Part shown: positions 486 through 63,124 of the stretch, one piece after another
How the letters are laid out: each line of letters begins with the position of its first letter
Position numbering within the stretch: position 1 is the first letter of the stretch
Assembly: GCA_051294905.1 (NCBI GenBank)
Contig: CM119371.1
Span: 34,598,001 to 34,662,000, forward strand
Length of the DNA: 64,000 nt
Source of the DNA: Botryllus schlosseri
Taxonomy: Eukaryota
Reading direction: 5' to 3'
Translations under genes and position numbers: made by a program
The notes under the pieces: model-generated
The model's database searches: none
Seen by the model: the letters and a program-made list of their open reading frames with translations, nothing else
What the model was told of the DNA's origin: nothing

Positions 486-785
486 CGGTTGCCAGACATA
501 TGAGCATGCGACACAATTGAAAACGACGATTTAGCATGGGACACTAGCATGCGTCCTTTCAGCATGCGACTTTATAACGCAAAAACTAACCCAAACCCAA
601 AGCATAACAATTTACCTTTATATAGGCTATATCGTAACCCCAAGCCTTATCCTAACCCAGCCGTAAATCCAGCCATAATCCACCCTAACCCGTAAATTTA
701 CCGACATTATCATTTTTCGCATGCCCAATGATCGCATGCCGAAGTGTCGCATGATATAATGTCGCATGCTCACATGTCCACGGAT
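486..785. repeat. Small foldback/MITE-like element with internal TAACCC-type repeats
   Basis: GACATATGAGCATGCGACA (~495) is mirrored by TGTCGCATGCTCACATGTC (~760), flanking degenerate AACCC repeats. Confidence 0.55.
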
Positions 786-3297: not shown

Positions 3298-3414
3298 TAA
3301 ACTGATGCTATGCTCGCGTTTTCAGTTGTTTGAATAAATTTGAATTTGAATGAAACGAAATCACCGCTATTTATGCTGAATGAAATCAGTTCAATTCAAT
3401 GTGAATTTACTTAT

Positions 3415-3982: not shown

Positions 3983-3990
3983 GTTGGGGC

Positions 3991-28132: not shown

Positions 28133-28204
28133 TCCCAGTTGGTCTAGGGGTCAGGATTCCTGGCTTTCACCCAGGCGGCCCGGGTTCGATTCCCGGACTG
28201 GGAA
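28133..28204 (+). tRNA. tRNA-Glu, anticodon TTC
   Basis: Acceptor stem TCCCAGT/ACTGGGA; anticodon arm CCTGG-CTTTCAC-CCAGG; T-arm CCGGG-TTCGATT-CCCGG; 72 nt; no encoded CCA; TTTT Pol III terminator just downstream. Confidence 0.97.
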
Positions 28205-28718
28205 CATATTTTCGTTTGTTGCCTGTCTTCTCAGATCATGCCAGAGCATTGCCTCCGAATCCATGTTTCTTTAGTAGTGCTGTGCCTAATTATCATGCAT
28301 ATACGAAATTGTGATGTTATGGATTAGATAGGCTCTGTTCTAGCAACACCGTTATTCTCAAACGATGAAATTGGCAACCAACCGCACTAAAGAAAGTGGG
28401 ATAATATGTGAATAATAGGTATGGGTGAAGGTGCGGAAGTTTTTTCTTGATTCAGATTAATAAAGTGATGGGTGGGATCATTCTTAAATAGGAATATTGG
28501 GTAGCGCCCATGAAAAGATTGGGAATAACCGGACGAGACTATGTAGCTTTGCAATGCCTCGTACCCGGGCCTACGATATCATGGGCCCCGCTTGGACCTT
28601 TTAAGTCCGAAACTATATAGCAATACGAATGCGGTTACAGATATATGCGCTATTAACTTATATTATCGATTGTTCATGAGAACTTTGCACTGCATGCGCA
28701 CTTTTTCACTTTCTAGGA

Positions 28719-30471: not shown

Positions 30472-33400
30472 CTCGGCCTAGGGCCCGGTTTCACAGTTCC
30501 TTTTTCGGTGTTAGTCTCTATTCCACGGCTCTTTCTTGGTCTTTCCATTCCTTGTGAGTGCGCTGTTTCATCGGGTCTTTTTCTGATTTCCAAACGATTT
30601 AGTATTAGAAATCATGCAGTCACATCATCACGCGAAAAACATCAAATTTTAGATATTTTAATATATAATACATTGCAACTTACTTTACAGACTGCTGAAC
30701 GCTCAACGAAATGGTAATCGGTTGAAAGTATATCCAGTTAACACAGTATTTTCTGTATAGCCTATTGCAAAAGCAATCAATCGAAAATGCAGATGCATGC
30801 GTGTCAGTGTGCCTGTAGAAGTGTTCATGATCGATGTATTATGATGATACAGACGTAAAATAAATTTGACCATTTCATCTCAACTTCTAGTTGCAAACAT
30901 TAGCGGATCATTAGACATGATATATGTCCGGTCCATCGGCTGGATTACATCCGAAAGATTTGGCTATACCTCGCGTCATATCCCGATGTTTCCAACACAT
31001 TTGGAATGGAATTTTGTGACATAGTCCAACGTTTATACTGTATAGTGTATATCCTTAATTTCTAGTTTACGTAATCTGGTTAAACACATAATTAAGCAAC
31101 ATTCGTTGGTGAGTCCGGTTTGCGGGTATATTGAGATTCTGGCGTTTTCTTCAGTTCCCAGATGGATCGTCGTTTCATCTAAAAAATAAAACTAGGTCGG
31201 TTATACAGACATTAACGGAAATCGTCACAATAGGAACTATGTGATAATACAGACAACGAATAAGCCACACTTCGAGAAACGTTCAAGTTAGACCTCATCA
31301 GATGCACAATGATAGCGGCTCCTACCAGAGCTGTTGTGATTTTAATAAACTCCCAACAAGCAGTTTATGGTTTAACTTTCGAGTTGCGACTTCCATTACA
31401 TGCTACGAAGTACATTGGATTGGTTCATTGTTAAAGACGTCGCCTGTAGCTATAGGAGGTTAAATTGCTGATATGTTATCTAGGAATGTGATGGTGCGAT
31501 GGAGAATGTTCAATGGTAACTGGTTTGGGAAAAATAAATTCCCCGAATTAAACATTCCAAGTTACCCTGGTGATTTCTTTGTGTCGCCCGTTGATTTCTC
31601 AATTGCGAGTTCTGAACTTCGCGCGGTAGGATTCTCTTTCATTTTATCCGCTTGGTACCTTAACACGAATTGGTTATAAGAAAATATGCTGTTGCGGTTC
31701 ATTTCCTAATTGATATATTCAGTTAAATCCTGATACAACCCGATAGAGCGAAATCGAAGCTCGTATCCTGTCATGTCTCGGACCGTACACGAAAATTTGC
31801 CGCTAATTAACACTTTTAGCTCAAATTTGAATCGTAAACAGGATTTGGACAAGGAATTCTGTCATTGAGGAATATAATTTCATCGTATAGACCAGTGGTT
31901 CTTAACCTTTCTTCCTCCAGCGCCCCCTTTCAAAAATTATCGTGCTCCAGCGCCCCCCAACCTCATATTGTAAGGAATGTAATAAATACAATGACTAAGA
32001 GGGAGGGCCGTAACAGCACTTCGTCAACCCCCCTAAAAACGATTGCCTTGCGCACCCATAGCGTGATAAACCAAACTTCTGAAGGCTTCGCCCCCAAGAA
32101 CGCCGCAGCGTGATTTCGATGGTAGGCAAAGTTTGTGTGGCCTGGTCGCCCTAAGGTACCAAAATTTTCTATAATGCATGAAGTAATAGGTGGTAATTAC
32201 ATATATAAGTCGCTATAAACTTTTCATCCTCTCAGCCCACGTAATCAGATTTACCAGTAGCGCTGAGTGAGCTGTTGTATGGGTAAATAAAGGGCACGTA
32301 ATTATTAATTAAACATATTCGGGCGTTCCCGTAGGTACAATTAATTCGTTACCAGGGCCGCAATTCGTCAGCCCCCCCCCACCCACCTAAAAAAAACGTT
32401 GGTCTTGGGTTCCCCCATCGGGTGATAAGCCAGGCTTCCGGGGGGCTTCGCCCCCAGACCCTCCTTCGGCTATCCGCTATTTGCTGATACTATTCATCTA
32501 CATTGGGTGTCCGTTTACTAAGCCAGCTATTGTCGCCTAGACGCCCGAAGCGCGAAAAATTTCAATAATTAATGATTGAATTGGTCAATATGATCGGGAA
32601 TTGCATGTATATTGATATCAATTTTTAGCCTCTCTCTGCTCACGTAAACAGATTTACCGGTAGAGCTGAATGATGTGTGATTGAAAAGGTAGGACCCCTC
32701 AATAATAATTATACATCTTCGTGCGTATACCCGTGGGCAGGAACGATACGGCACTTCGTCTGGCCCCCCGAAAAAACTTAGGTCTTGGGCTCCCATAGGG
32801 TGATAAACCGAACGCCCCCCATCACGTTGTTCGCTTTAGACACGAAATCAGCTGTACTGTTTAGCGAGCCAGTGCGAAGCGCGAAAACTTTCGATAATTC
32901 ATGATAAAATCGGTCAGTAAGATCGGGAATTGCATATATCTTGTAATCAATTTCTTGTCCTCTCTGCTCACGTTACCAGATTTACCGTTACAGCTGAGTG
33001 AGGTGCAATGTTCCCTCTAAGCTGCGCAGGTGCGCAGTGCTGACACGGTCTCTGCGCACAGAAATCTACGTTGCGCTCAACAAATCCGAAGTTATGACCT
33101 TTTTTTAGTCGTTACGCACTGTTGTCCAAGGGTCTGCGCAGTGAGTTGTTGAGTGTGCGCAGACTCGTCAAAACGTAGAGCGAACATTGTGAGGTGTTTT
33201 GGAAACTGTAGGGCCCGTAACTAATAACTAAACATATTCGGGCGGGCGAACCCGTTGGTATGACTTCGTTACATGATGTTATTTCGTGACCTCCTGTCTG
33301 CTATATCAAAAAATATAGAATTGCCCAACAGGGATGTCGCCCAACAGGAATATCTAGCTTTAGATATCCCTGTCGCCCAATCGTACTAAACTAAAAGACG

Positions 33401-36400
33401 CACACGATTATAAATTGTGATTTCTTCACTGGCATGTAATTTTTCCCTGCCAGATGAATTCGTCTTCTGGGGTTCAGATTGCCAAGACAGGAATATTCGG
33501 TGCCAGTCATTTAGGCGCCCATGGACAATTAAACGTATATGTCGAAGTTTTTGGTGTTAATTTGCTCTGAATACTCATTAGGGATATGTCCTACCACCAC
33601 ATCATCTACTGCGAAGCCATTTTTCTCCAGCGCACCCCTGAGCCCAGCGTCCCCCTGAGCCCCCTCAGCGTTTCCGCCCCCTTCAAAATCGCCAGCGCCC
33701 CTTGGGGGCGCTGGAGGCAAGGTTAAGAACCACTGGTATAGACCTACATCCTTAGTTCATCCACATTAACGTAGTCGGACTGTTTCCTCGATAGGATTCT
33801 GTTTGTTATCTTGGACACTGTGATTTCGCTTCCAGACTTTGTACTGCTTGAAGCGTCATCCTTGCTCTTGCTGTTTGAAGCTGCGGTGCCCGATATGGTT
33901 CTAGGAAGCATAACCAAATAAACACGAATGGGGAACGGAAGCTTTTGTCAGGGTGTGGCTGAAATATAGTGCGGTAACCAATTGCAAATGTTGGTGACCA
34001 ATCAATATTTTGTTATCAAGCTCAAATCGTCACTGCGCTTGGAGGAGCTCAGTATTCGAGAAACATATTACATCATATATTTTCAGTTCGTTTAAACATG
34101 TTCTGACTGATACGGCCCCGTATTTAATCTTACATGGTCATTGACTTAGGTGGTGAGGGGAAAGAGGAAAAAATAGGGAGTGTACTGGCCAGAAGATGCT
34201 TGAAATGCCGATCTGATAAGACCGTGTAAGAGATATTTAAATGTAGTAAAATAGGATATGGCATTTGGAGATGCCGAAAGACAAACGACATATACTTTCT
34301 CAGTTCGTCCACATTAACGCAAACGGAAGCCTTTCTCGCAGCTGTTCCGTTTTTTATATTGGACGCAACGATTTCGCTTCCAGAATTCGGGCAACTAGCA
34401 TCTTCATGCCCACGGTCGCTGCTTGACCCAGGTTTCACTGTAGCATCCGCTGTGTTTCTATAAAGCACAAAAATAGGTTACATGTCATGTCGGCTTCTAC
34501 TCGTATAGATATGGTTGGAAATCACCACAAGATTGTGATACAGGGTATTGAAATATCGCTCGGAACAGTTCTAGATGTATTTGGCGTCATGCGACGCTTT
34601 TGTACCATTAATTGCTAGCGGGGCGCGAAATATTCCGCTAAACAAAACTGAGCCAAATGATTAAAATACGGCATGGTTCACATCGGTAAGTCTTCTGTTC
34701 TGTATGATCATTGATCAATAAGCATTTTTAAATGCTACTGCAATGTTATTACCCTTGGGATGATTTAAGAGCTTCAATTTCCGTCCGTTGAACTTCCTGG
34801 CTGGATTTTCTCGTTTTATTCTTTGCGTCCTCAGCTTTTTTCCTTCAAACAGGTTTTGCATTTATCATCATTTTATACGATACTTCCCATCTCTGACTCA
34901 TGAACTGGATAAAGGGATTGATTTGACTGTAGGCATACTCTTACTTAGTTTGACATAAAACAATGACCGGATTTTCCGCTACCAGCAACATAAAAGAGAC
35001 GAAGTACGCGTTGCATGTTATAATTGCTAAGCTGATGATGATGGCGGGCATACATTCGTATCACAAGTGCTTACGTCGCTCCATCCACCTGTGTATCACC
35101 TATGGTCCCAGTATCGACGTGAATGCATGATAATGCAGATGTATATCATTATCCCATAACGGCTGCGCACAAACCGCCAAGGCCAGCTGCACAATGGCGA
35201 TGGTGTTCACTCATAAAATTAAATTGATGACCATGTATTTCGTGATGTGACCCTGATTACTAACTTTCATTATATACTACATACACCGGAATAGAAAGGG
35301 AAAGAATATTGGTGCTTTAAACTGGAACTTCGTCATTCATAGTGAATAGTGATTCATTAACAGTTTGAGGAAATTTGGTTGTGGTCACTAGAGTGTCGTG
35401 TGGATTTGGCGACTGCCTGAGTGTGTACCACATAGTATAGCTGGGTACATTTTTGTTGGTAATAGATTGATAGGCTGCATTTTCTCTACGTACTTTATCA
35501 TCAGCAAACGTTTGAATATGGTTTATTTCGACTGAATACGTGTCAACTCCATGGTACATCCTGGGAAATTATGTTCATTCTGGCCCTGTACCAGTTCATA
35601 AGCTGTACAAAAAAACGCTGGAATATTGGAGTACACATACCCCTGGATAATATCTCTTAACAGAATCGTGGTTTCCGTTATAACAGAAATTGCTAAATAG
35701 TTGGTGGCTATGATATTTCTTATACCATAATCACCCGTAGACTTAACCGTATGCGCCTACGTTACGAATACAGTATTCAGTATTTGGACCATGCTATTAT
35801 CTCATGCATTACCATCGTAAAATGCCTTGTACATACATCAGTGAAATAAGATCATTTGTATTGACTCGATCGACTACAGAGACGGATTCTGAGTTTTGGA
35901 AAAAGATCATTCGCGGTAACTCATTGAGTATTCTTACTTTCGTATTTCGTCGACTGGTACATAATTGGATTCCCCACGCCTCGATTTGGGCGCGTCATCC
36001 TTTCCGATTTCATCTGCCGACTTGGAAGGAACGGGGCCTTGGGCGGTATCTGCGTCATCCCTGCAATTCATTGATAAATATAGGCGGATCTCATTCAGTA
36101 TGAGTTGCAGGAAGTTTATCCATCGTAACACCGTCAGTAAGACAGTAACGAAATAATTCTACATTTTCCAATGACTCGATTAGATGTTGCCTACTTACAC
36201 TATTTACTCAAGTGTTTATGTTTTAGGTTAATTCCAATACTACTTGACAGTTTTTTAGGCACACATTTTTACCTTTCATCCTTTGTATTTTGAATAATAG
36301 AAAGTAGTTCGGCTTGTATTTGCTTTAAAACTGGGCGTCTGTATACTGATAACTGAACATCAATTCGAAAATTGCAACTCAGTAATATCATTGGTCATTT

Positions 36401-39400
36401 CGCGTGAGTCGCGAGGATGTACCTTGCTATTTCGAAAGCGGCGACCTACGATCGACTCCAAACAGTACGCCACACAAAAACCAGTTTTACTTTTCGAAGA
36501 TACTTACCTCAGAGTTTTTCATATCTTCATTTTCTACTTCTACTTGCAATAGAGTAGAAAGTAACGGCATTCATTCTAATTCTACTTGAGTAGCAACGCT
36601 AACTACATGACCGCTCCAGTGAATTTGAAGAGATCGATTTACGACCTAAATATATAAAATCGGTTATATTTTACCACAGGACTTGAGAAGATGCGAGCTT
36701 GAGTCTTCACTGAATTTAATATCCATCTCGCACGAATGATCTACTTCATTACTTCAATACAAGCGACATCCTGTTACTAGGACCAAGATTTGTTCGCTTG
36801 CTCACGAATGAACCTCACGGCTTGAATTGGCTATAGTAAGGATATTCAAATTCCAGAATTTGGGATATTTTAGTCTCGGATAGCCAGTTCAACCCGTTAT
36901 ACTGAAACTTGAATCATGCATTTGATGCTGACAAAATATAGTAGGCCTACAGAATGTACAGATTTTGATATTACAAGGTGAGACTTACATCAGAGTTCGG
37001 TAAGGAGCCACGTGACCTATGATTTCATAATGACGAGCTGTAGAATACTTTCCTGGGGGCTGAATTCGTCGTAATTGGGATAGTTCTTGGATAATATCTT
37101 AGTTTCATCATTCTCTCAGTGATTTTAATACTTGGTAACCAAACTAACCGTCCCAAATTCGTACTCTTTCATTGTTTTATCACAGCGCTGTGTTGCCCAC
37201 TAGTGGCTACAATGTAAAGAACGATCCTTATCATTCATAAGGTGTGGGTTGGGTTGGAAGCCGCTTTTCGAGTATACCTACATCCGTTTCGAAAAAGTAA
37301 ATATATCATCGGCGGAAGTTCCCGTTTCGACACTGTCTTTTTAACTTCCCACCACCGAAACCTTGAATCCTGGTTTTATCGTAATCCAAAACATCACAGA
37401 TTAGACTAGGGCTGCATTTAGAACAAAAATCAATTTAAAACAAAAATGTTTAAAACAAGGCCCTAATTTAAAACATTTTTTTATTGTTTTTTATGTTTTT
37501 TTAAAGCCATGACGTCACGATTATTCAATTGTGACGTAATAGTGGATTGACATTAACAATTGAAAATATAGGGTAAAAATAGCTCCGTTGACGAAACATA
37601 TATGAACTATTGCTGTTGAAAAGACTATTTTGACGGTTCCAACCATCCCATATCGATATACGCCGGCTATATTGGGTGATAATTGTCCAAAGACTCAAAC
37701 GTGTTTTTTGTAAAGTATTTACACAATTATGGCATAATTTTACAACTACAAAAAACACAATATTTTTTAAAAAGGCCTTTTTTTAAAACACTGTTCAACA
37801 CATCTTTTAACCAAAGTGTTTTAAAACACCGTTTGTTTCAAATATAGCCCTAGCCAAAATATTGGCGTTGCGCATGTTTTGCTGTATCATAAACTCATTT
37901 CTGTCGCGGTAATAATAGAATAGATATATAATGGCATAAGTGCTGTATTCACGTATTGACTAATATGCCAATGGTGATGCCAGTGATACATATATAACTT
38001 GAAACCTACCGTTGCATCATGCTGTTGTCGCGTGGAAGTCCACCTGATGCTTGGTCGCCTGGATTTGAAGTTTCTGTAGTTATTTTTAATTGTATCGTGT
38101 CCGTTTTCTTCTTTTCAAGTTTGTTTCTATAAAATTAAAGGAAGAGCACGTAAAAGAACTTATGTGAGCCAACGGGAACGCGCGGTATACGAGTTTACTA
38201 AATATCGAACAATCGCTGACTTTCAAGCAACATGTGTGGTATAACGAGTAAAGCCACCGGTATATCTACCTACATGGTCGATTGTGAAATGATCATAGAA
38301 TTTTGTTCCCTTTTTTCTGCATTCCGTCTAAAGAATACATCTCGGTAATTTAGAGAATCTGTCACTGGTTAATTGCAAAACGATCCTAGAAATCACAGTT
38401 TCAGACGAATTCGGACAATTCTAATTGGTGATTGGGTGTAATTGAACCAAATAAAACTTTTACTTGAACACTAGCATAACGCTGTTTCACACCGTCTTCA
38501 CGAGCCAAATATAATTTGAATTCTTACGGAAATGAGGGATATGTAGGCTATGTATAATTGTATACTTACAATCTAATTGACTCGGCTGTGGCATACAAGG
38601 AATCTCCTTGGGGCTCGTTTGCGACGCCGGTATTATCCTCTTTATGCCCGGTTTGCGTTTCCTCTTTTTTGTATGTTAGGGTTCCTTCATTTGGTTCGTT
38701 CGCTGTACGCTGCTGCTCAGTTGAGTCCCTTTTATCGTTAATATATTTTAAGGTAACTGGTAAATGGATTCATTCATATTATGTCTAGCAATTCCGTTAG
38801 GTAAAACCTGTAACCGCACTCCGAAATGGTTACTCTTTATCCCAAACACGTTCGAAGTCCCTTGTAATTTAATTCCGCATTTCTAGCCTGGTCCGGGAAG
38901 CTCTGATGCCACTTCTATACTTGAGAGTTTAACTTTACGATATCACTTCTCTCTAACTAGTATTGCACCAGCTAGTTATTTCTGATATGACCTACGCATA
39001 GAACATGGTAACAATCCGTTTTCTGGTTATAGCTATCCTATATTGTGCACTGCACCGGGAAATGAATGTATCTTCCTGCACAACAATGGAAAATAACCAA
39101 AACTGACAACAACTCGCGACATGTCGTTTAGACAAACCGCTGAATTGTCTTGTTTCGTTGAGCGAGGTGCAATCCAAACGACGTGTTGCGTGTTCTATTC
39201 CGAAAATATCGGCCTTGTTGAGGATACACGTCCATATTATGGATTCCTCAACCCGAACGTGGTCCGTAGATTCGCTACTGGGCAATCGATGGAACCACAT
39301 GCAGTAGCAGTACTCCTACCTGTACTGATCGAGTGTTTGAAAGCCGCTGCGAGGTCTATTGGCTACAATTGTTTCTCGAGCAAGCATAGACGTTTACAGA

Positions 39401-42400
39401 TTTTTTCCGCACCCTTGTTATGATTCTGGCTAGACGGTTGCTTCATATACTACAATTGCACAATAACAGAGCAGCTTCGTGAATTAACGAGTGCCTTTCA
39501 TTGCGCATATCGAAAGCTTATTGTATGTGTTATATTACCATACATCGGGGTAACGCACAATGAAGCGAGTACTCGAATCTGATTCCACTATAAATTTTAA
39601 CGATTGGAGTTGAGTTGGAAGATATGATTTTTTAGTAATGAAATAACACGCTCCTAGCCACTAATAGTTAATTTGTCAACGGTAATTATAGTTTCAGTAC
39701 TACTTTCTGCTATGGAAGGCTGTAAACATCGAATGGTCGCATCGCAGCATATGAAACAAGTATAGTGCAAAGATACGCAAAATACCGGAATATTCGTGAT
39801 CAACTCACAGATTTGTCACTAGGTATGGCCGAAGAAATACCAAATAATCTTTAATATGATGTAGAGTCACAAATTTACAATCTCCGCTATTTTGTACATT
39901 CATGTTCTTTCATCATGTGCGAGAATTTGGACTCGCGAATGCTGAAATTGTCCGCATAATTGAGAGGCGGTACTTACTTAGCTACGTCATCCGACCGCAC
40001 GTCCGGGTCCCCTGCGAATTTATCAATCGTATTGTCTGTGGAAGTTTTGACATCTCCGCTGCTGCCCGATTTGTCGCTGCGAATAGTAGATATGCTCTGG
40101 ATCAGGGGTCAACAACACGCGGCCGGTGGGCGCAGGTCATATTTAGCGGCCCGCAAACCGATATGAGATTTCGAAATAACGCTACCAGTAAAGCGTTTTG
40201 TCATGCTGAAATTGACTTCAATTTCAAAATATTGTTGTTGTTTCAAAATAACCTATTCACTTGTGCCCAACATCATCATTCCTCACGAGCTGAACGGGTG
40301 CGGTTATGGAAACATCATTCGATCGAGGGACAATCAGCTGATATGAATATAGACATATTGCCTTGACGAGCAAATGACCAGAAACTGCCAAAACCGAGAC
40401 GCTTAGAAAACGGCTGAATGTTTCTCCACAATATCAAGCTTTAGGAGGAGACAGTCTTACAGCCGGTAACGTGTAGCCTACCGCTAGCCCTAATATCGAT
40501 TCTTTAGTAGCTGAAAAGTGTTGTTAGGTATATCGTGCGAATCCCATAGTTCAAAATAAAGTGAATTTGATAATCATGATATTTCCTGTTCCTTTTCTAC
40601 ATTTTAAATAAAATATTACTTCGGTTGTGGTAACTATGCCAAACGCTCATGTTAGAGAGCACGGCGTTGTACTGACGTAATGTTTTAAAATGTGGTTGCT
40701 CAACTGCGTGGCCTATTTTGTCTCGATATTGCATTCTTGAGGCCCGCGGCCTCTACGAAATTTGAAAAGTGGCCCACGACCCGTTTTGAGTAAGCGAACC
40801 CTGCTCTGGACTAGATATTATCAATGTAAAGTCACATATATACCTTAAACTGACCGCAACATATAAGATTTATATATTATCAATACAGATGGTCATTGGT
40901 CAGTAGCGAAGTATATATATACTACTACTACTCTTCAGACTACTCGAGTAGGTTTTTCCTACTCGACTACACTTACTCAAGTGGTTCTCTCTTTTGACTA
41001 CTTCCAATCCTACTTTATAGTAATAGTTGTTAAGGCAAAACTTTATGAAGTAGAATGTAGCTTTGGGGTATATTATTATTATTATTTATTTGGTAGAAGA
41101 AAGGGAGTGTCGCCTATCACCGTTAGGTCTTGCGTGCCACGACATTAATCAATTATAATGTGGCAGCAATTCAAATAAATCGATCACAACTAAGCAAATA
41201 TTCTACCACGTATATTTCAAATGCTTTGGGGTATCTTTGTATCACTTGTACGAGTGGAATTGTCATGACAACGGAGCAAAATGGCTCTTGTATCATCTGA
41301 ACTAAGTGTTTTTCGAAATATACAAACTCTTGCATAGGCAATAGTGGATGATGCATCTCTCAATTTTAGAAGTAGTCACCAGAGGTGGTCAAAGTAGTCA
41401 AGAAAGCTACTCAAGTAGAAGTAGAAGTAGCGACGAAAAAAATATACTCAAGTACGAGTAGAAGTACTTCTTCAATTAGCCACCTGAAACTACTTTAAGT
41501 ATAAGTAGAGTTGACTGACTTTAAATCTACTCAAGTAAGTAAGTAGTTTTGAAAACAGTCTTAATTCGTTCGCATGGACTGTCAAAAGCTGCAAATTGAG
41601 CTATGCGGCTGTTTACCAGAAGACCCCATTTTTGATAATATCATGGCATAGCGCCTTACCCCATATTATAAGGCCCCAAGTTTAGGCGAAGAGCAATACG
41701 TAGAAGTTGTATCGGATAAGGTTTCATCACTTCGCCCGATAAGTATACATTAATAACGAATATTGAGAACGTAAAAGTTATATTTAGTGTAGCGTTATTT
41801 TCGGAAAATAGAGGCATTATTACTCTGACTTTCATGCTTCAACATGTATGTTCTGCAGACAAAATAACTGAAAGTAATTAGAAGTCAAAGTATGAAACTC
41901 GTAATTGAAAGTGAAATACAAATACTACTTCTAAAGAGCAAAAAAATATATTTCATGTCTTTTGTCCATAAATCTTTAAAGGTGATCTGCTAAAACAGGT
42001 GTACCGTTAAAAAAATCCTGATTTTCCAGATTAGCAAGACACGCAATAGGCTGCTAGATTACGATATTATAGGTCATTGCTAGATTGCGAAACGGTAGTT
42101 TCAAACGTTATGGTGGGCTATCTTTACTGTGATGAAATATTTGATATGGGCGACAATGCGGTGTGCGAGGAACCAAGCAATCTGATACCTAAATTATATT
42201 AACTGATACTTTCATGAAAACATACTTGTCACTCCATCACTACTATGCGCGAAGCGCAACAAAATTTCTGGACTTTACTTGACTTTTATGAATAATAAAT
42301 GTTGGTACTCCGTGAAAACAGTGCCGAAATTCCTCAGGCTATCTTTCGCATTGGGGGATTAAACTACTTCTACTTGACAATATGAAAATAGAGAAAAATA

Positions 42401-45400
42401 AGTAAGTAGATCACAAAATATTACGAAGTAGAAGTAGAGAAAATCAGATCTACTTGCATAAGTACCAGAAGTAGAGGAAAACTACTTGGGTACTTCCAAA
42501 AAGGTAGATGTACTTCGTTACTGGCCACCTCTGGTAGTCACCTCCAAGTTACTGCTACAAGCATGCTATGTCTCAGCCAATCTTGTTACGTCGCAGCGCC
42601 ACTTTTCTGGCTCTGCCTGTGTCCTCACTCCAAGTTTCTGAGACTCACTTTTCCGTGTCAGTATCTGAACTCGAGGGCGTATTCGTCTCAGCAATCGTTG
42701 AACAAGCGGATAACGAAGTACTTCGCTTGCCTTTTATCTGCACCAGTTCGAGCTTCTTCCTAAGAATGTAGACAACATCCCAGAATCAAATGAAATCTTT
42801 CCAAGTCAAACAGTCTAGAACTGGAGAACATGTGAGAACTGGAGAACATGTAAGTATAGCCTATACTGGAACTACAGAGATTGGAATATCTAATGGATTG
42901 AACCATTGTTATATTTGTGAGGTGCATTGTCACAGTTGCGTATGAATTTGAAGGCGATAGTGCATTGTGCATAAATATTAGTTTAACGCTATCCCGGATA
43001 ATACAACATTATATGAAGTCTGTTAAAAAAAAACAGCAATAATGGGACAGGAATTTGATCTTCGATTGTATGATGTTAATATTTAATATGACTATGTTAC
43101 ATTTCCAAATCTCAAATAACCTGGTAGTTAGGTTTGCGTCTGAAATCGTTTGTATTGTATGAGAAAGTTTTGTATTGTATTATTGGGCACAACACACTGG
43201 GGCTGATCGATTTTTTAGGTCTTGTGCTCCACGACACGAATTTCATAATGTCCATAGGTCTTTTGCTTTTTGGTATTCTTGGGAACGTCTTTGAATCTCT
43301 CTCGCAGTCATTCTTCATTCTCTCTCGCTCCCATGCGTCCCCATTGTTGTCTCTGCTGCCGACTTATAGCACGGCTTTTACAATGCTTTACCGTAGTAGT
43401 GAGGTCGGCGATGAGGAGCCCAGAGACACCTCCGACGCGCAGAAGTTGGTCAGAACCGGGATTCAAACCCACGTCCATTGGTGTCGGGAAATATGAGAAA
43501 ATATTACTAATCTCTTAAAATGATTACAAGAAAGAGTCTTGTGGGTCGTGCTCTCGAAAGAATTGAGAAACATAGACTGTTATCATATAGTAAATATTAT
43601 ATACAATACAAAACTGTGATGGCAATCTTAATATGCAACCTGTAAAAGACGGGTTCATGATTTAGATGTTCCCTCTGCGGTATACTATATGAGAATATAT
43701 TATACAAAGATACATGCCCATCGCCCAAGCCTTCGAAATCATGCAACACCGTGAAATAGAGATCTCCAAATCGTATACAGGTAGTAGCATAACTTACGCT
43801 CTGACTTCTTCGATGTCAGCCAGGTAGTTGCATCTGCTTTCAAGGCGAATTTTTCTCTTCGAGCTACTTTTCTCGTGTTTCGATTTCGATTCCGATTCTT
43901 CCGTCTCGGATTCACCACTTTCATCTTCCTCCGAGTCCGAGTCTTTATTGCTGTATGGAAAACTTCGTGTGATGGGATTGCTCATTGTTGGCCAATATTA
44001 TGGAGTCGAAATATTTGCGGTTTTGATTAGAGTCCTCTTCGGGTGATAGATAATCAGCCCGGCCTGTGCCTGGTAAAATGGTCTGACCGGGGCCTACAAT
44101 ATTCGTTATCGTAGCTCCCGATTGGACTATATACACTGATCTCTAAATGTAATGCATTATCAGCGATATTATGTGTAGTAAAACACCGATCTACGAAAGT
44201 TTGATAACCAGGACTTTCCAACTTACACGCAATCTGTTTTGAAAATCAGAGTTACTTTACTGATATTTGAACAAATAGGCCTACATATATAATCCAAATT
44301 CAGATTTGTTTCCGGAGGGCCGAGTAGTTTTGCTGCTACTACTGCTCAAGTAGGGTATGTTGTTGAATATACCAGTTGTCAATGTTTTGAATCGACTCCT
44401 ATACGCACTGCGAGAACTAGGTAATTTTAATTGTCTCATCTGATTGTGATTAGAGGTAAAAGCCGGTAATCTAATTATAATCTAATTTGTGATATTCTTC
44501 TATGCTCCAGTTTCAATTCGAATGTAATTTATCGTTTTTTCTTAAAATGATACGATAGAACTATACAGTGCGAAAAGAGCCAAGCTTGCTGTACACGTAC
44601 TGACGTTTTCCATTCTCGTGACAACGAACTCTGACTTGCTATGAACTGATCTTAATATCCAAGTTTTCGCGAATTCAGTAATTCTAATTCAAATCTAACT
44701 TAGAAAAGCTGAGAAATTTAATATTCTAGTTGTCCAAATGTCCAAGTTGGCTACCAGCATAGCTGGGCCATCATCCGAGGCTCTCTCAATATTCCTAATG
44801 TTAGACACCTTTTTCTTGTGAACGACGTCATTCTCTCGGGGTCGTCAGATTGTTCCTGAGCGTCGTCAGATGACATAGGTCGCAGTTCCATAGTGATCCT
44901 ATCTTCGTTTTCTGCCATCTCTACATCGGTGATTCGCTTCTTCGATGCCCGACGGGTTCTGTGATTGACGCACGAAAGTAGAATGTTCGTATAAACTTAA
45001 CGCTTGCGAGGAACCAAAAGAGATAAGCGTATATTTGCCTTTTCAAATATAAACTCAGTTCCGGTTTTGTGTGTAGAATCCGGGTTGCATTTCGTTACAC
45101 GACCATATCCAGTCCAGTAATGACTCCAAATATACATTCGGCAGACGTATAGAAAGCGAAGAGTATGCCAATTTTTAAATTTAAATCCGGTCACGCAATA
45201 TTCTTCTGTACGAACAAGTCCATATTCTCAATTACATTCGTTACATAGAGTGTCAGGTCATTTCGATCATTTCAATTAGCTTATTATTAATGATGATATA
45301 TCATATGTTCGACCTGAAAGATCATTACTTTATCAAATATGCTGGAACTCAAGAGTAGAACAGTACGGAACAGATCATCGCCGGACCTGACGTAAGGAGC

Positions 45401-48400
45401 AATATCCCGCCGCCCATCCGACAGTCGCCGAGCATGTCCACATTCAAGTCGAAATACAAGCAATTTCTACTGAATGAATAAGTCAGCCCGCTAGTTTACC
45501 CGACCATGATCTGACATATCAATGTCGCCTTCCGTCACATGCCACCTCATTTTGTCGCTTGTCCCTTATATTATCTTCTTTTACTTTTCATTCAGTGTGC
45601 ATGACTCCTCTGTTCATCGCCAAGGCCCAGGTCACCTACCTGATTTCAAAGTGTTTCAAATCGCTTCAACACCTTCCTAATTTTTCATTGTATCACATTC
45701 TTGTGGTGTATTGATCTGATGAAATTGTAGATTTAAAGTGAGTACTGAAATGATTACTGCAGAGTGCAGATGTCATCAGATTGTGGAACCACTTACTCTT
45801 AGCAATACGACAGTTAAAGCATTACCTGAATATTTCATTTTTATGTGCTATGTCATCATAGCGTTACCATATTTTGGAAATCTGAAATGAGGACATGTAC
45901 TTTTTCAAATTTTCAGACTACAATACTGGAGTAAAATCCGGAAAAATTGCTCAATTTATTCCGAGTCTGCAGTTGGTTGACTAAAAATAAGGTCAGCTTT
46001 CTGTATCAACTTCCGAAATACCCGCCGCAACGTTACTTGAGTACTAATTTCCTATATCTCAGTTTGTTTGTTTGTTTTGGGGGTATTCATGGTGTTTGTC
46101 GACTACTATGGTCATTTACACAAGGCCGATATTCTTCTTATTTTCCGTAACTGCCGACTTATAGCACGGCCCACCTCTAGGCTTTTTGTAAGACACCGCT
46201 GACGCGGATGAGGTGGCGAGGAGGAGCCTAGGTTAACCTCCAACACTTAGGTATCGCAATTCGGAATATATTGAATATATTAACATGGATTTCGCAAAAA
46301 TTTTCAAAAAAGAGGACATTTGGACGTCCTCCGAGGACACTTTCAAAAATGTCAAAAAAGAGGACAAATTCTCTTAAAAGAGGACATAAGGTAACCCTAT
46401 GCCATCAGCCATCATATATTACTTTTTAATGCAAACACATGCTCTGGGCTACAGGATTTGAGCAGCAACCAAATGAAATTCGGAAAGCCAATCATGTCTT
46501 TGTTTGAGATGCGGATCAGGACAGTATAGTTCAAATGTTTAATACCCGGCGGAAAAGGGGGAGTATTTAGTTTCAGTTGCGTGACTTCATTTTTGGAGAG
46601 AGGACTATGAGTCGTGATACATATCTCCAGACGGGCGATTGGTGATGAGCGCCGCCATTTATTCTTTTAAAACAACGATAAACTCTCATGCTAATAATTA
46701 GGGCAAGTTTCTGCAACTTTTTTTACAGATTTTAACAGCTTCCTAGATACTCAGAATTTATGTACAATGATGTTTTAAGCTGTTTGGAGGGATTTTATAG
46801 TGCAACTTTTTGCAACTTTTCTCTATTTTTCATACCAAATTTTACTGCAACTTTTATCAAATATTGTGTCAAAATGTAAAGGAGTGATTTAAAATCATGC
46901 TATAAACTATTTCCGGTATAGTTCTATTCTCATTGATTTGCATAACAAAAAGTATGATGGGTTAGCTGCATCACTGTGTTATCTATGACACAATGGTCTG
47001 CAAGCAAAAAGTTCAACTACCCCTGCCAAACACGACTGTGTCCGAACAATACGTAAGTAGGTCGCTTTTGTAATTCAGTCGTTTGAATATGAGATAGTTT
47101 CCCATTTCACGAACGCCCATGCGAGACTGCTGCCAAAATTACATTTTCACTACATCACCATATTCAGTCTTTTGATTTTCCTAAAGTCGCCTAGGGTCAA
47201 GTTTGCAAACCTAGGGGGTTTAGGGTGAGTTATTTGACTTGTTTTAGGGGTAGGGGGTGATCGCTATACTGTTTGACTTTTTGGGGGAAAATTATTCCCG
47301 CATTGCGTAATTTTCTTGCTGTGTGTAGGGGAAAAATATAAATTTTGGCGGTCTCGCCAGAATGTCCGTGAAATGGTACAGCAACAAATTTGACGACCTG
47401 CAGAAACTAGGTTATACAACATAACCTTTCGAGTGTCTCATACCCGACTAATACAACAAAAATTATAAATGCAACTTTTTACTGCAACTTTTTCCAAAAT
47501 TAAGTGCAACTTTCTCGCGATTTGAGTGCAACTAAAACCAGCCCTAATAATAGTAAAATGCCCAGCTTGATGTTCATTATACTCGCTGTCTCGTCGGCCA
47601 ATAAATGAATCCTGCAAACTACAAAATTGGGTTGTCGCGCGTATAATTGTATTGATTCGAAAATCTTCTAGTTCTCTGCACTCACTCGAGAATAAATTTA
47701 ACGACGAGAAGAAACACGACGACAAGAAGTGTTGCTATTGCTGCTGTTATTGAACTCGCTACCGAGTCCATCATGCATTCAGCGTTTTGTTCCGGCTCGT
47801 CTAGAAATGAATGGAAGCGATTATTAGGGACACATATAGGCATGCAGTAAGATCTCGGAGTCATTCTATATTTACATATATTCTAAATTAGATTTCTAAT
47901 ACATGTTGTATCGTCATACCATGGGAAAAGTCATTATAATATAGTATTTGGTTGTGAGCTGAAGTGTGCGTAAGTGAAACATCCTTTGGGCTGTTTTAGG
48001 ACCGGTCGGCAAATTCAGGCGGTTCGTAGGCCTACCGGTTCTGCAGAACCGTTAAACGAATTTTGATGAGATCAGCGAACATTTTAGCATTTCTGGTTAC
48101 TATAAATGACCGACAGAGAAACATAAAATTCGTGTTGGAACCGGCTGACAAAAATTTGGATCTGACCACGACTCGCCATTTCGACTAACAATTTAAAATA
48201 CCCGATAATACCTATAACTAAAATGGTGCCACATGGAAATCGTGCAATCGTATTTGAAAATAATATTATAACCATTTCTTGCGGCAGAAGGCATCAAGTT
48301 ACAGCCGATGCCACCCCGTGTCTCGTATATTCCGTTATTACCTGTCGTGCAGTCTTGATATCGGTATGACATTACAACGGAGCTCCCTGTCTTCACTGTC

Positions 48401-50472
48401 GCTAACGTGGGCGAATCCATTTCATGATTGTAAGTTTGAATATACCCTTCGTCGCACCCTCGGAATGACACTGGACACTCTTTATGCAGGTAGACAATGC
48501 AAGAAATGTATTTCGGGTTGATCGAGCCGATATCTGTAATCAGGAAATAGTAGCGCAAAATAGAGTCGGGGATTTCATTATACATCTAGATTTGATTAGG
48601 CGTTCTTATGTTTATCCAAGGAAACAGGATTTTAGTAGATCTATCCGTCGCAAATGCTTTGTTTTTGTTTGTTTTTCGGACACGACAATCATTGACCGTA
48701 TGTATATAGAAAACGGGACGTCTCGGTTCTCTTTGGAATTTTTTTTGACTCTGGTTAAATTTTCGTGTCAATTTTTAGTTTTCCGTTGTTTGATATCCAT
48801 GTGTAGAAACTAGCATTGGAAATTAGTTATCTCTTAAACGCTTTTGACAGAATGTTCTCATGAGTATACAATGACGATTGACAAGGTGATCTTGATCACT
48901 CTCTCACTCTTGACAGATAATCTTTTTATATACCAATTTACAGGGACTAATGGTCGCTTTTGTCTCCCCCAATACTTGGTTTACAAATTGCGGGGCATGT
49001 TCGATGGCCACCTCTCAAATAGCAATATTCAACAAATGTCACGTTTCGAAATGAAAAACCTTCCGTTTATAACCGGGAAATATCTAAAAGCGCAAGCTTT
49101 GGCTTGATTTTAGAACTATTTTTCGGACAATGGTTCCATCCGTTAACTTACCCGGGAATTCAACCATCCCCTCACTCTTTTCGCTGTCTATTTCAATGAC
49201 AGTGGCAGCACCTTCCGGTGCTTTTGGTATCTCCCATTGTTTGCAGCTTTCACTTCCTGGTGGGCTGTTGTATTGGAATTCCGTTCCTTTGCAGATTGTA
49301 CCGAGACCGACACACTGCGTCAATTGCATGGCTATGAAGGAAAGGTCTGAACTGAATTCATTTAGCGAATTCCTTTGCTTTTTCGCACTTGGTCGCACAC
49401 TTCAGTGATGGTATTGGTCTATGTGTAGGAAACAATTAGAACTTGAGGGTGAAAATCATTTTTTGCCCCAATTCTATCCAATTTACCCGAAAGAGAGTTC
49501 AACTATTACCAGGGAAACAAAACTGTTATGACCCTTTATAACAGAACTATATACTAATTCATCATACTCAGCGGTTCCAATATTAATGTTCAGTACGATA
49601 GGGACTTGGACTCTGGTAAACTGGACTGTCTGATACATTTAATCAACCGGAAACGCCCGAGAGTACTGTTACATCATGCAACCTATGTATTTACAATACC
49701 TGCAATATTTACCGCGCTATTAGGAAGTCGCTTTCGCTACACGATTCAATCCCTGATAGACTTTCTTATGGTGTCCACCTGGGACATGAAGTTTCATTCA
49801 TGAACAAACAGGCATGGTCCAAAACGCCCTAGTTTACGAGAATCACCCGCTATACATTAGGGCGGAGCATGGACCGAAGTCGGATTGGATATCCGGGCGG
49901 ATTTTCTTATTTTTGGCCGGAGCCCGTTTGGAACCGGATCAGTACTTTTTCTGGCACGGCCATAGCCGGATCAGTAGTTTTACTAAGAATATGACAGTCT
50001 TACCCTCTTCCACTCTCAAATCAATTTAAAATGAAACGTTCATGGGAATAAACCGCATGCTAAGTCCAAGTTGACGGAATTATTCCAGATGAGTGTTGGT
50101 TTGGATCTTTGAGTTTTTACTGCCCTGTTTGCATTGTTTCAATCAATATTCAAAACCACCCTGTGAGCAGATAATTATCATCGTAGTTTTTCGGACCGGA
50201 GTCGGACCAGAGCTTTAAAACACAGGATTGGAGTATAGGACCGAAGAATTGTGACGATTCGCAAGCATGCATGCGACATCTCCCTCTGCCTAATGCCCCA
50301 AGCAACAGCGTTCGACCTGGATCTTTCGGTTGTCTTATCGTGTCAGTCACTTGCCTCGATATTGTCATTAACTACTAATTAAAATTCACAATTCACAAAT
50401 TCAGTATACAGAAAGTTATATACCTGTCAGAGTCAATGCAATTCCGAAGGCGGTCGCGGCATATCCATCCAT
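30472..50472 (-). CDS. Type I transmembrane receptor (~690 aa): signal peptide, small Cys-containing CUB-like ectodomain, TM, long cytoplasmic tail with repeated Tyr motifs; 3' end unresolved
   Basis: In-frame GT-AG exon chain: 50472-50424, 49346-49152, 48533-48342, 47800-47686 (TM ITAAIATLLVVVFLLVV), 44958-44809, 43950-43798, 42759-42649, 40076-39978, 38728-38570 (weak acceptor), 38126-38010, 36060-35938, 34842-34753, 34457-34296, 33900-33748, 31658-31566, 30582-30472. Phases are compatible throughout. CKQWEIPKAPEG resembles CUB CxWxIxAPxG. Confidence 0.8.
31893..33735. mobile_element. hAT-type non-autonomous element with internal tandem units and a nested MITE
   Basis: TIR CAGTGGTTCTTAACCTT; perfect TSD GTATAGAC; lies in a receptor intron, 12 nt from an exon. 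Confidence 0.9.
33006..33189. mobile_element. 184-bp miniature of the CAATGTTCCCTCTAA family
   Basis: Same TIRs as 3991-5510; TGAGGTG duplicated on both sides. Confidence 0.8.
37407..37852. mobile_element. TAGGGC-TIR MITE with TTTTAAAACA motifs
   Basis: TAGGGCTGCATTT/AAATATAGCCCTA inverted ends. Confidence 0.6.
40103..40803. mobile_element. Charlie-like MITE
   Basis: CAGGGGT../..AACCCTG ends; TSD CTCTGGAT/CTCTGGAC; GGCCCG motifs. Confidence 0.8.
41380..42533. mobile_element. hAT-type element with AGTAGAAGT subterminal arrays
   Basis: TIR CAGAGGTGG/CCACCTCTG; perfect TSD GTAGTCAC. Confidence 0.9.
45330..45733 (+). mobile_element. LINE 3' end (same family as 3415-3982)
   Basis: IKYAG..IPPPIRQSPSMSTFKSKYKQFLLNE* plus the shared 3' UTR. 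Confidence 0.75.
45859..46399. mobile_element. TAGGGTTACCATA-family element with a nested SINE fragment (~46070-46255)
   Basis: TAGCGTTACCA/GGTAACCCTA ends; TSD TGTCATCA/TGCCATCA. Confidence 0.8.
46699..47546. mobile_element. TAGGGC-TIR element with TGCAACTTTT arrays
   Basis: TAGGGC/GCCCTA ends; TAATAAT at both flanks; motif arrays at both subtermini. Confidence 0.7.
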
Positions 50473-51064: not shown

Positions 51065-52572
51065 CAATGCTCCCTCTAAGCTGCGCACGTGCGCAAATGC
51101 GCAGTGCTGAAACGGCCTCTGCGCACAGAAAATCTACGTTGCGCACATCAGTAATGATGTTTTTTTTATAGCTGTTGCGCACTGTTGTCCAATGGACCAC
51201 GCATGCGCGCAGATTCGTGAAAATTAAGATGGAACATTGCCAGGGCCAAATAGTGTTATCACTGAAGTCTGAAACCGAGGTACAAGTGCGCCCCGCAAAG
51301 GTAACTATTCCGCTCCGTGAGGAAATTAGAGTTCACAAGGACCTGCGCCTCACGGAAGATATTTTTTAGTATGGCCTCGTAAACGTGAGCGATACTGATA
51401 TCATTACAATAGCACATTATTTTCTGGGAATGGCGAAATAACCTGGTTTCACAAAGTTATAAATAACAATGGGCTAGCTCGAAGTTAATCTGCGAGAAAC
51501 TAACGAATGATAGTCTTCTTCGCGTGGCATGAACATTGCGTAAGATTTACTCAGGACCGTAACTTTCGCACCCCAAACCCCCCAATTGGAGGGGCCGAGC
51601 TCGAAGGGGGTCCAAAATTATTTCGAGAATTAACATATATCATGGTGTATTTTTTAAAATTTTTCAGGAATTTTTTTTCGCGCTACGCGCGTTTTATTAT
51701 TGTAAGAAGTCTGATTATTGGGTACCCTTTCCCAACAAAAATTAGGCATGATTTATAGAAATGGGCAGTTGGGCGTCGGCCATTACCGCACCATGACGCG
51801 CCAAGACATATGAAGTTAAAGGTTATGTAACATGCGAATCCAAGAAGTGCGCCAGAACGATCAGCAGCGAGAAAACCTTGGGCGAAAAAGACTGCCCCGG
51901 CGCTGACCGAAAACTTCGATATATACAAATATATGTGTAATTGTCCATGTCCATGGGCGCCTAAATGGCTGGCGCCGGATGTTCCTGTCCTGGCGATCCG
52001 AATCCCACAATAAGACAAATGCCATATCGAGGGAACATTATTTTCCAGTTAAGAAATACCAATTTGAAATCGTGTACGTCTTTTACTTTAGTACGTTTTG
52101 GCGATTTCAATATCTTTTGACATAGCAGATAGGGGGTCACGAAATAGCATCATGTAAGAAGTCATTATATCAACGGGTACGCCCGAAGATGTTTTATTAT
52201 TATTTAGAGGGCCTATCTATTCCCACACACCTCACTGGATCAGCTCTACCGGTAAATCTGATTATGTGAGCAGGTAGAGGATAACAATTGATAGCAATAT
52301 ATAAGCAATTCCCGATCATATTGGCCGATGCAATCATGAATTATAGAAATTTTTCGCGCTTCGCGCGTTTAGGGATGCTACTGCTAAATGGGCACCCAAA
52401 GTACATGATGAGTATCGGAAGAAGCCTACATCCGTAGGGGGGTCTGGGGGGCGAAGCCCCCCAGTAGTTAGTTTATCACCCTATTGGAGGGTGGTTGCAC
52501 ACTGTTGTCCGAGGGACTGCGCAGTGAGTAGGCGTGTTTGCGCAGACGCTTGAAAAATTAGAGGGAACATTG
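51065..52572 (-). mobile_element. 1.5-kb CAATGTTCCCTCTAA element (copy 2, inverted relative to 3991-5510)
   Basis: Perfect TSD GTTGGGAT; end-to-end homology with copy 1. Confidence 0.92.
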
Positions 52573-53239
52573 GTTGGGATGACTCGAGTCACCTTTTTCG
52601 TATGACTTGACTTGACTCGAGTCACTCTGCTAAAATGACTTGACTTGACTTGACTCGTCGTATCAGAAATATGGATTAACTCGTGACTCGGAGCAAAATT
52701 AAAGAGTCAATTTCAAGTCCTCAATTAATCGGTGTCGATAAAAATCACTGTATCTTGCATATGTTCGCAAAACGGTGTGTAACCCGTGACAGCAACCAAT
52801 CATTCAATGATTGCTCATTTTACTGAGCCTCCATTGTTCTCTCAAAAATAAATTGACACAAACGAAGTGATCGAAGCTTACAGCTTACGTTGCCATAAAC
52901 TAGTAGTAAAGTAATATAATAGAAAATTATCTATTTCAGTTCCTACCTTAACCAAACCTCTTGTTTTACTGATTTTGAATTCGAATATAGTTTATATGGG
53001 CTACTTCTCAACCATTGGCGCAGGCTCGAATTGTATCATATCAATATGTAAAAGGGCAGAGGATAATGTATTGCATCTTATCAATTGGTTTTTCTATTCT
53101 CTATTTTTGCTGGCAACTGTAAACTGAGACTACTTATATGTGAGCGCCTTCTGTGCATATTCAACTCTATATTCGTTCATCGGTTCAGAATCAATGACCA
53201 CTCAATCTGTATTTCAGACAGCTAGCAAAGTGTAATGAC

Positions 53240-61400: not shown

Positions 61401-63124
61401 GTATCTCAGCTGGCTATGCATCTCTTGCATGTATGCTGCTCCGGTTACGTATTAAAATCGATTATTCTATGGTTTTAGAAATATATCTGATTGCTGTGCT
61501 GATAGATTTTGCCCAGAAATATGAGAGGGATACATTTATTCCATGAACAGATCTTTGCATCATTAGAGGCCTAGATCTATAGCAAAAATGTCTCCAGAGC
61601 CCCCCCCCCCCCCAGGGGACAATTTGGATTTTGAAGGGGGCGAAAACGCCCAGGGGGCAATGTGGGGGGGCGCTGGGCTCAGGGGGTGTTGGGCTCAGGG
61701 GGCGGTATGGGGGCACTGAAGAAATATGGCCTCGCAGTAGATGGTGTAGTAAGGACATATGGGTATACAGTAGAAAGATAGTTCTATATATCTATGAGCT
61801 CTCATTGCAAACTAACACTCGACAAAATCTGCCAAATCACGACGCATTACGTCACGCGTCGGGCGCAATATACCCCGACGATGGTTCCATGAATGCATTG
61901 GATTATTATAACTCATGTAAAATGAATTTCGCGTACTTTTGGATTGCCAATTCCCCGTTATAACGTTCCCGTCAAACTAGTCGGTTTATTTTCGACGAAA
62001 TCTTTCTAATTAGGTATTGTATCCTGCAGCGCACAGAGCGTCGAAATCGAAAAGGCACTGTGCCACTTTTGAGAGTGCCGCCCTTTGTACATTAGGGTTG
62101 TTCAAATATAACTTTTTTCCGGATTCCGGGGATTCGTTGATTAAATTGTTAGGTTGCCTGAAAACACTGCACGACAAATTTGGATCAATTCCAACAATTT
62201 CATGGGGTTGACAATAAAATTTGAAATTTATTTTTACATTTTTATATAACAACGTCCAAATTTTAAAGATGCTTTGAAGCTTTTTGGCCAAAATGATTAC
62301 CAAAATATGCAGGAGAGCTACAATATTTGAGAGCTACAAAATTAATCGTCAGAATATTTCTTCATCGTATCATAAAGGATGATACTGCTTAGAGTTGTGA
62401 CCCACATTCATGTTCAAGTTAAGAGCTTGGTTCGTATAGCCCTTACCCGATGGTTATAACAACCTTGATTTGATCCCGAATACAGCTCATACAATTATTA
62501 TATCATTAATTAGTCGATTGGTCCTCGGGAGCAACTCAAGCTGAAATGTTTCTCTAATAATGACGTCGCAATCCTAAACCGGACTTCGACCACTTGCCCC
62601 ATTGTTTTTTACTAGAGTCATTAAAACAGGGGGGCAGACCCGGGCAATTTTTGAAAGGGGGCACCGGAGGAAAAAAGGTTAAGAACCACTGATCTATAGA
62701 AAAAGCGCCGCAAATAGTTTGTTGGACGGTACCATATCACAATAGCAATAACCTACTGATGCAATAAATACTGCATGGATGTAATATTCCATGCAAATCA
62801 CACCCCACAGAATAAGTCACAGTTCACACCCAGTGCATTGAGTTCATTTGCGAGCAATCGCATCGTTTCCGCGTCGGGGCAGCTTTTTACAAACGCCATG
62901 AACCGTGTCCGTGGCTTGTATTAAATTGAGTGATCATTGTGGTTTCAACAGCCTTCATTCGCCCTGGTACAGTCGATTTCTGGATCTGACAAGCAGAGAG
63001 AATACTGATATACTCGTTTACAGGGTCTTTACTGTTTCCACCGACTACGACGGCAGCTCGAGCCTCGACCACAGTGGCTACTACTCCTACTATAGCGACC
63101 ACAGCAGCGCCTGAAACCACAGAG
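58454..63124 (+). CDS. Secreted protein, 5' exons: signal peptide, Tyr-x-Pro repeats, Thr-rich mucin-like linker; continues downstream
   Basis: Exons 58454-58511 (MRISISCFALLVYVVYASE), 58596-58624, 58747-58936 (YRPAYRPIYVPVYQPRYLPGYQPRYQLRYQP) and 63024-63124 (PPTTTAARASTTVATTPTIATTAAPETTE) have canonical sites and compatible phases. Confidence 0.8.
59236..61211. mobile_element. hAT-type element with GATTAC subterminal arrays
   Basis: TIR CAGACATGGGGT; perfect TSD GATATAAG; appears to lie inside an older AATCGAATC element (~59061-61271). Confidence 0.9.
61583..62691. mobile_element. CAGTGGTTCTTAACC-family element with decayed left TIR
   Basis: TSD ATCTATAG on both sides; right end GGTTAAGAACCACTG; inverted homology to the ends of 31893-33735. 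Another left end starts at 63465. Confidence 0.75.

Follow-up and report, generated by a model that had tools for sequence, protein, structure and literature searches.

Gene organization at the locus

We analyzed a 64,000-nt stretch of Botryllus schlosseri DNA (assembly GCA_051294905.1, contig CM119371.1, positions 34,598,001 to 34,662,000; in the following called the window). Its minus strand carries a predicted tunicate gene of 13 exons that runs from 50472 to 33744 and encodes 593 amino acids (aa) with no internal stop. A frame resembling cellulose synthase (E-value 3.8e-4) on contig C9 of the same genome also points to a tunicate, this enzyme being a tunicate marker within the animals. The predicted product has a signal peptide, a Cys-rich ectodomain of ~125 aa, one membrane helix and a polar tail of 410 aa. 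At the ends of five tail exons, a short tyrosine module is repeated. As judged from the sequence, this repeated module is real and under selection, and it lies within a predicted orphan membrane protein.

AG and GT are present at all modelled junctions, and the nine tail exons are all of phase 2-2 with lengths that are multiples of three (Table 1). Between 33700 and 45000, eight polar open phase-2 exon candidates were found on the minus strand and none on the plus strand, compared with 0–1 in eight other strand-regions of equal size. The putative exon 1 is the best of the 10 listed candidates leading from an ATG to a phase-1 donor upstream of exon 2, and hydropathy over aa 5–35, the signal peptide region, is 1.2–1.6. 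The membrane helix in exon 4 reaches a 19-residue hydropathy of up to 2.9, with basic residues in the next exon. The tail is 20% acidic, 16% basic and 23% Ser/Thr and is proline-poor. The protein would stop one residue past module 5, either by read-through (TAG at 33746–33744) or by a splice from 33747 to an acceptor at 31178. Two further stretches were rejected as exons, one at 43355–43191, which is a high-copy repeat, and one at 37114–36989, which is without a phase-2 acceptor.

An earlier note on this DNA, made from the letters alone, had described a receptor with a tail of ~500 aa under the coordinates 33748..43950. In our model, the ectodomain and membrane exons fall beyond this range, at 47686–50472, and the tail is shorter, also if the doubtful extra exon is counted (440 aa).

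Table 1 Predicted exons of the gene and related features in the window.
Feature	Position	Strand	Description
Exon 1	50424..50472	-	Start codon, first part of signal peptide, aa 1-16, phase-1 donor
Exon 2	49152..49346	-	Phase 1-1, aa 17-81, end of signal peptide and first half of ectodomain; ttcag acceptor, gtaagt donor
Exon 3	48342..48533	-	Phase 1-1, aa 82-145, second half of ectodomain; ttacag / gtaata
Exon 4	47686..47800	-	Phase 1-2, aa 146-183, short stalk and transmembrane helix; ttctag / gtgagt
Exon 5	44809..44958	-	Tail, phase 2-2, basic juxtamembrane, no Tyr; weak donor gtgtct
Exon 6	43798..43950	-	Tail, acidic/Ser-rich, ends in module 1 (Tyr276, NYLADIEEVR; not ITIM)
Exon 7	42649..42759	-	Tail spacer, phase 2-2, no Tyr
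Exon 8	39978..40076	-	Tail spacer, phase 2-2
Exon 9	38570..38728	-	Tail, ends in module 2 (Tyr400, SLYATAESIR; not ITIM); weak acceptor taaaag
Exon 10	38010..38126	-	Tail spacer, phase 2-2, no Tyr
Exon 11	35938..36060	-	Tail, ends in module 3 (Tyr480, SNYVPVDEIR; loose ITIM)
Possible alternative last exon	35317..35560	-	80 open phase-2 codons, 5 Tyr (one YQSI, one YHGV), TAA end; may be chance
Doubtful extra spacer exon	34753..34842	-	Phase 2-2, 30 codons, AAG acceptor
Exon 12	34296..34457	-	Tail, ends in module 4 (Cys for Tyr)
Exon 13	33744..33900	-	Tail, ends in module 5 (Tyr585, SDYVNVDELR; loose ITIM and YxN)
Inserted element	31893..33735		1.8 kb, terminal inverted repeats, 8-bp target duplication (33743-33736, 31892-31885)

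A tyrosine module repeated at exon ends

All five motif peptides listed in the earlier note were confirmed on the minus strand, each lying 2 bases before a GT donor (phase 2). They are CNYLADIEEVR (module 1, 43832–43800), SLYATAESIR (module 2, 38601–38572), SNYVPVDEIR (module 3, 35969–35940), SVCVNVDELR (module 4, 34327–34298), in which Cys replaces Tyr (codon TGC vs TAC), and SDYVNVDELR (module 5, 33779–33750). The approximate consensus of these predicted peptides is basic-x-S-x-Y-V-x-V-D-E-[LI]-R, and the final Arg is the only column that is invariant across the five modules. RKAS and RKQS precede the last two modules, and we take them to fit a basic Ser-kinase site.

A loose module pattern with GT at +2 occurred six times in the window; in 150 Markov resamples it averaged 0.087 occurrences and never exceeded 2. 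This test flatters the result because the pattern was derived after the fact from the five peptides themselves. Five of these six matches fall in this gene. The sixth, at 20922, was rejected as an exon, with stops close upstream and a poor donor. When the last 32 nt of ten tail exons were compared, pairs of module exons had 12–25 bases in common and the other pairs 2–14. The similarity of the module-exon ends increases toward the 3′ end, with 25 of 32 bases shared by the last two.

Throughout the genome, the motif pattern gave 25 matches when at most one mismatch was allowed, and 12 for a reversed control. The two exact matches and one more lie in this gene, and 17 represent one repeat family. 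The five singletons were rejected for want of an open polar exon.

Duplication of the module exon and selection on the peptide

Exons 12 and 13 share 72.6% DNA identity over 95 nt, and the introns flanking them no longer align. Among the predicted exons, exon 12 is the closest copy of exon 13, and the modelled arrangement is one in which a symmetrical exon was duplicated in tandem and the modules spread with it, the 3′ end holding the youngest copies. Exon 8 may be a decayed module, as 14 of its last 32 nt match the last module. Tyrosine sites that stem from duplication of one symmetrical exon would be a clean case of how a multi-site signalling tail is built.

We compared the proportions of synonymous (pS) and non-synonymous (pN) differences between these exons. 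Over the final 8 codons, exons 12 and 13 differ with a pS of 0.51 and a pN of 0.06, compared with 0.44 and 0.30 in the 23 codons before. For exons 11 and 13, pS was 1.0 and pN 0.20. Across six exon pairs, 15 of the 24 codon pairs that encode the same residue differ silently. Low pN beside high pS in the module codons means that the peptide was kept and the DNA was not. In the predicted coding frame, the module peptide is therefore conserved while silent sites drifted, that is, selection acted at the protein level.

What is conserved might also work without phosphorylation. The module could act in sorting, as a YxxV signal read by clathrin adaptors, or be a short amphipathic V-D-E-[LI]-R element that, together with the basic/Ser stretch before it, engages a domain of the cytoskeleton or of a scaffold. 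In that case, the role of the protein would be in adhesion or trafficking and not that of a signalling receptor. The invariant final Arg is consistent with this explanation, as are RKAS and RKQS with their presumed Ser-kinase consensus. So is the Cys copy: over the seven codons of VNVDELR it shows three silent changes, and no residue is replaced. However, four of the five modules hold Tyr in the same slot and the tail has one other Tyr, and the change from Tyr to Cys needs a single base and may be recent or allelic. Overall, we consider a phosphorylation-independent role unlikely.

The ectodomain and the search for relatives

According to the earlier note, the receptor had a tiny CUB-like ectodomain. 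The predicted ectodomain is indeed small, with 8 Cys and without an N-glycosylation site, and is encoded by two exons of 64–65 codons, but its likeness to CUB passed no test. Pfam yielded no match for the ectodomain exons with E-values of up to 0.1, and the 146 CUB matches found across this genome do not include this ectodomain. Using a local CUB profile built from 29 matches of the same genome, its score was equalled or beaten by 86 of 1000 shuffles (154 of 2000 in another version), and in a global CUB alignment by 36 of 300. The first Atlas match for exon 2 was a cluster with CUB on 34% of its members (score 0.79, a sub-threshold lead); the match for exon 3 (0.77, oxygenase-like) was rejected. 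Exons 2 and 3 do not align to each other, and no convincing further ectodomain exon was found upstream. Many CUB matches in this genome span half of the profile, as two exons would, and a very diverged CUB ectodomain is possible. The structure prediction proposed in the earlier note was run on single exons as single sequences, with no alignment, and gave unusable folds (pLDDT of 47 for exon 2 and 44.5 for exon 3); a complex prediction of both exons scored 0.00. Elsewhere in the genome, multi-CUB genes occur in very long single exons of 750–1080 codons (C6, C10; e.g. L013, L027).

The genome of 495.5 Mb in 219 contigs (GC content of the window ~40%) was searched with exons 2, 3, 4 and 13, the possible last exon, the motif pattern and 3 kb of DNA. 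Only this gene, repeats and one match with an E-value of 9 and a stop were returned, in searches that very diverged paralogues could escape. A paralogue, for which the earlier note suggested looking, was likewise missing from the window and 20 kb on each side.

Searches for homologues used single exons of 63–80 aa and hence were weak. Against longer proteins, exon 3, the possible last exon and exon 2 had 3, 11 and 5 candidates, respectively, none of which scored. Three matches of exon 3 among 1.84 billion representatives were rejected as repeat-rich proteins found via summed short stretches. None of 257 pattern matches in metagenome contigs was confirmed, and PDB sequences gave only noise (E-value 0.66). 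In the open literature searched, outside of which most subscription journals lie, there was no description of this protein, and YVNVDE, YVPVDE and VNVDELR appeared nowhere. The view that the architecture is an unrecognized one thus holds for the databases searched, in which it had no match.

Possible binding partners of the tyrosine sites

The predicted tail contains no more than 5 Tyr, and the modules account for 4. SNYVPV and SDYVNV do fit [SIVL]xYxx[IVL], as the earlier note had stated. The ITIM (immunoreceptor tyrosine-based inhibitory motif) has a loose definition, given as [ILVS]xYxx[IVL] in the available text of PMC9546547, and a strict one, I/L/VxYxxI/L/V, used for Botryllus FcoR. Two of the five modules match the loose form ([ILVS]xYxx[ILV]), both with Ser at −2, and the other three do not; two or more loose ITIMs were present in 213 of 20000 tail shuffles (~1%). 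The strict form ([ILV]xYxx[ILV]) matches none of the five modules and none of the five tail tyrosines. An activation motif (ITAM), searched as Yxx[LI]-x6-12-Yxx[LI], occurs in none of the three gene models, and the predicted tail contains neither a switch motif (ITSM) nor YxxM.

The tail has one intact YxN (YVNV), plus one copy with Cys for Tyr, and module 4 is one base away from a second YVNV site. In the available text of PMC3342071, YVNV is named as the motif for Gads in LAT and LAX, and YxN as that for Grb2. One or more YxN occurred in 4853 of 20000 tail shuffles (~24%), so that YxN alone is weak evidence.

The label “inhibitory” in the earlier note does not follow from these counts, and the last site, YVNV, is equally a Grb2/Gads site of LAT/LAX; the predicted tail would fit inhibitory and adaptor readings alike. 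A true inhibitory receptor, with modules 3 and 5 as ITIMs through which SHP/SHIP would be recruited and an activating pathway of blood cells or epithelia dampened, appears improbable to us. It could draw on the two loose ITIMs, more than shuffles usually give, on the position of one of them at the very end of the protein, and on SHP-1 and SHIP homologues, which are expressed in the Botryllus vasculature according to the available text of PMC12582321. On the other hand, no module fits the strict FcoR consensus, three of five fit no ITIM, the last module is also a YxN site, and no paralogue, tandem copy, Ig or sushi domain was found in the genome, the flanks or by Pfam. An allorecognition form of this receptor, as raised in the earlier note, is much less likely still: with neither paralogue nor Ig or sushi domain found, the gene is unlike clustered allorecognition receptors.

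We identified 61 SH2 matches in this genome. Two tandem clusters of SH2 exons, at 12.98–13.22 Mb of C5 (11 of the 61 matches) and 27.53–27.62 Mb of C10 (6 of 61), suggest expanded SH2 gene families in this tunicate.

A putative phosphotyrosine docking receptor

We suggest, with a probability of about one half, that this single-copy type-I protein is a multi-site phosphotyrosine docking receptor or scaffold, the sign of whose signal is not fixed. Clustering through the ectodomain would expose the module tyrosines to phosphorylation by kinases of the Src or Syk type, and the phosphorylated sites would then recruit SH2 proteins. The last site, YVNV, could take Grb2/Gads-type adaptors or SHP-type phosphatases, and the third, YVPV, would better suit SHP/SHIP; the signal could therefore be of either sign. 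Because every module has its own in-frame exon, skipping of module exons could alter the number of docking sites.

Several observations weigh against such a docking receptor. Module 4 is without Tyr, yet the rest of the module is kept, and two modules have no hydrophobic residue at +3. No orthologue was found in the single-exon searches, and the count of 61 SH2 matches points to no particular partner. The pS and pN counts rest on 8 codons per pair, which is small although concordant, and comparisons with module 2 were weaker (pN 0.35–0.51). The signal peptide is only moderately hydrophobic, with Asp at the exon join. In three raw RNA runs, of which 6–13% each was read, depth was zero over 48102–49435 (exons 2–3), and no modelled splice was among the 15 joints shown (137 more were not shown).

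Joining of the exons by transcripts, by which the earlier note would have judged the gene model, was thus not seen in these runs. Among the RNA reads placed, 97–99% ran on into unlike sequence, i.e., repeats, and one run (X1) resembled low-depth DNA, with pieces in introns. As the tissues of the runs are unspecified, nothing more follows from zero depth than that these samples are not rich in transcripts of the gene. A repeat at ~43240–43440 had very high depth in two of the runs, with thousands of loose-ended reads near 43400–43436, and probably belongs to a transcribed element that is abundant and located elsewhere.

Alternatively, the model might join exons that are not used together, for instance if the gene ended at 35560–35317 and the last two modules were left over, or the gene might be decaying or silent. 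The missing reads on exons 2–3, two weak splice sites, many intron repeats and the open phase-2 stretch of 80 codons that holds five Tyr and separates modules 3 and 4 are in line with this. Against it stand 593 codons without a stop or frameshift, tail exons in multiples of three and the low pN in the last two modules, and we regard a wrong model or a silent gene as quite improbable.

Comparison with known systems

No invertebrates are more closely related to vertebrates than ascidians (PMC5465252, available text), and for Botryllus, expression of most of the SH2-based signalling machinery has been reported, along with the lack of the LAT scaffold (PMC12582321, available text). Of the systems compared, transmembrane adaptors appear the closest in mode of action, with the predicted protein as a receptor-type version of them; its resemblance to FcoR, Alr and a Halocynthia protein seems to be one in kind only.

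According to the available text of PMC3342071, the transmembrane adaptors LAT, NTAL, LAX and PAG cross the membrane with a single helix and carry Tyr motifs at intervals along a non-enzymatic tail, a likeness by description and not by sequence comparison; LAT and LAX share their YVNV with the last motif here. The adaptors differ in having few extracellular residues, and LAT, NTAL and PAG, though not LAX, carry a CxxC palmitoylation site, whereas the present protein has an 8-Cys ectodomain and no juxtamembrane Cys (first tail Cys at 274). NTAL, by the same account, has five YxN sites compared with one intact YxN here. According to the available text of PMC12582321, ascidians have Syk, Grb2, GADS and PLC-gamma but lack LAT and SLP-76. 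It is conceivable, if rather far-fetched, that the protein is a convergent, ligand-sensing stand-in for LAT: a scaffold at the membrane whose long, disordered tail presents a YVNV of the LAT type and whose extracellular fold is undescribed, the number of docking sites being set by exon duplication in evolution and by exon skipping in the cell.

The FcoR of Botryllus are type-I proteins of 520–610 aa with long tails and several Tyr motifs, including core-1 YxxI/L/V (PMC12582321 and PMC12065747, available text). The 593 aa and two core-1 motifs (YVPV, YVNV) of the present protein match this description, a likeness of low information. In contrast, FcoR are described there as having an IgV, a sushi and two further Ig domains, as forming clusters of dozens of genes and as pairing with fester-family genes; the ectodomain studied here comprises ~125 aa in two exons and matches nothing in Pfam, a core-2 pair is absent, and searches for a paralogue found none. 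Neither VDELR nor VDEIR occurs in the supplement of PMC12582321.

Hydractinia Alr proteins (PMC9546547, available text) are likewise invertebrate and single-pass, with divergent tails and loose-consensus ITIMs. They differ in that their genes form a large family in clusters, with domains of Ig-like and Fn3-like type and in many cases ITAMs, whereas this gene has no cluster, no Ig match and no ITAM. A haemocyte membrane glycoprotein of the ascidian Halocynthia roretzi signals via tail tyrosines in blood cells, as a review describes (PMC5465252, available text); compared by description only, it has two ITAMs and the tail studied here has none.

Neighbouring elements and genes

The inserted element listed in Table 1 sits right behind the last coding exon, and its target duplication overlaps the end of the last donor site. 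Ends like those of this element recur at ~62646–62698 and 63457–63563. We take the element to be hAT-like.

A neighbouring gene lies farther downstream, at 18499–14011 (−). It comprises a 114-aa frame whose match to C2H2 zinc fingers is weak (E-value 0.69) and a low-complexity frame of 433 aa that matches no family. The window also carries a single gene for tRNA-Glu(TTC) at 28133–28205 (+). Two short frames resemble diverged C-type lectin domains by eye, one on each side of the gene, at 2051–3300 (+) of the window and near 3905 (+) of the flanking piece L064; Pfam gave no lectin match for the frame at 2051–3300 (+). Just before the window, two gag-pol-like frames of 652 and 779 aa (741–4900 (+) of L066) belong to an LTR retrotransposon that is Gypsy-like by eye, and they are followed by a thrombospondin-like exon near 8732 of L066. 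A 1.5-kb repeat is present in inverted copies at 3990–5510 and 51065–52573, which are 93% identical, with older fragments at 32400–33550.

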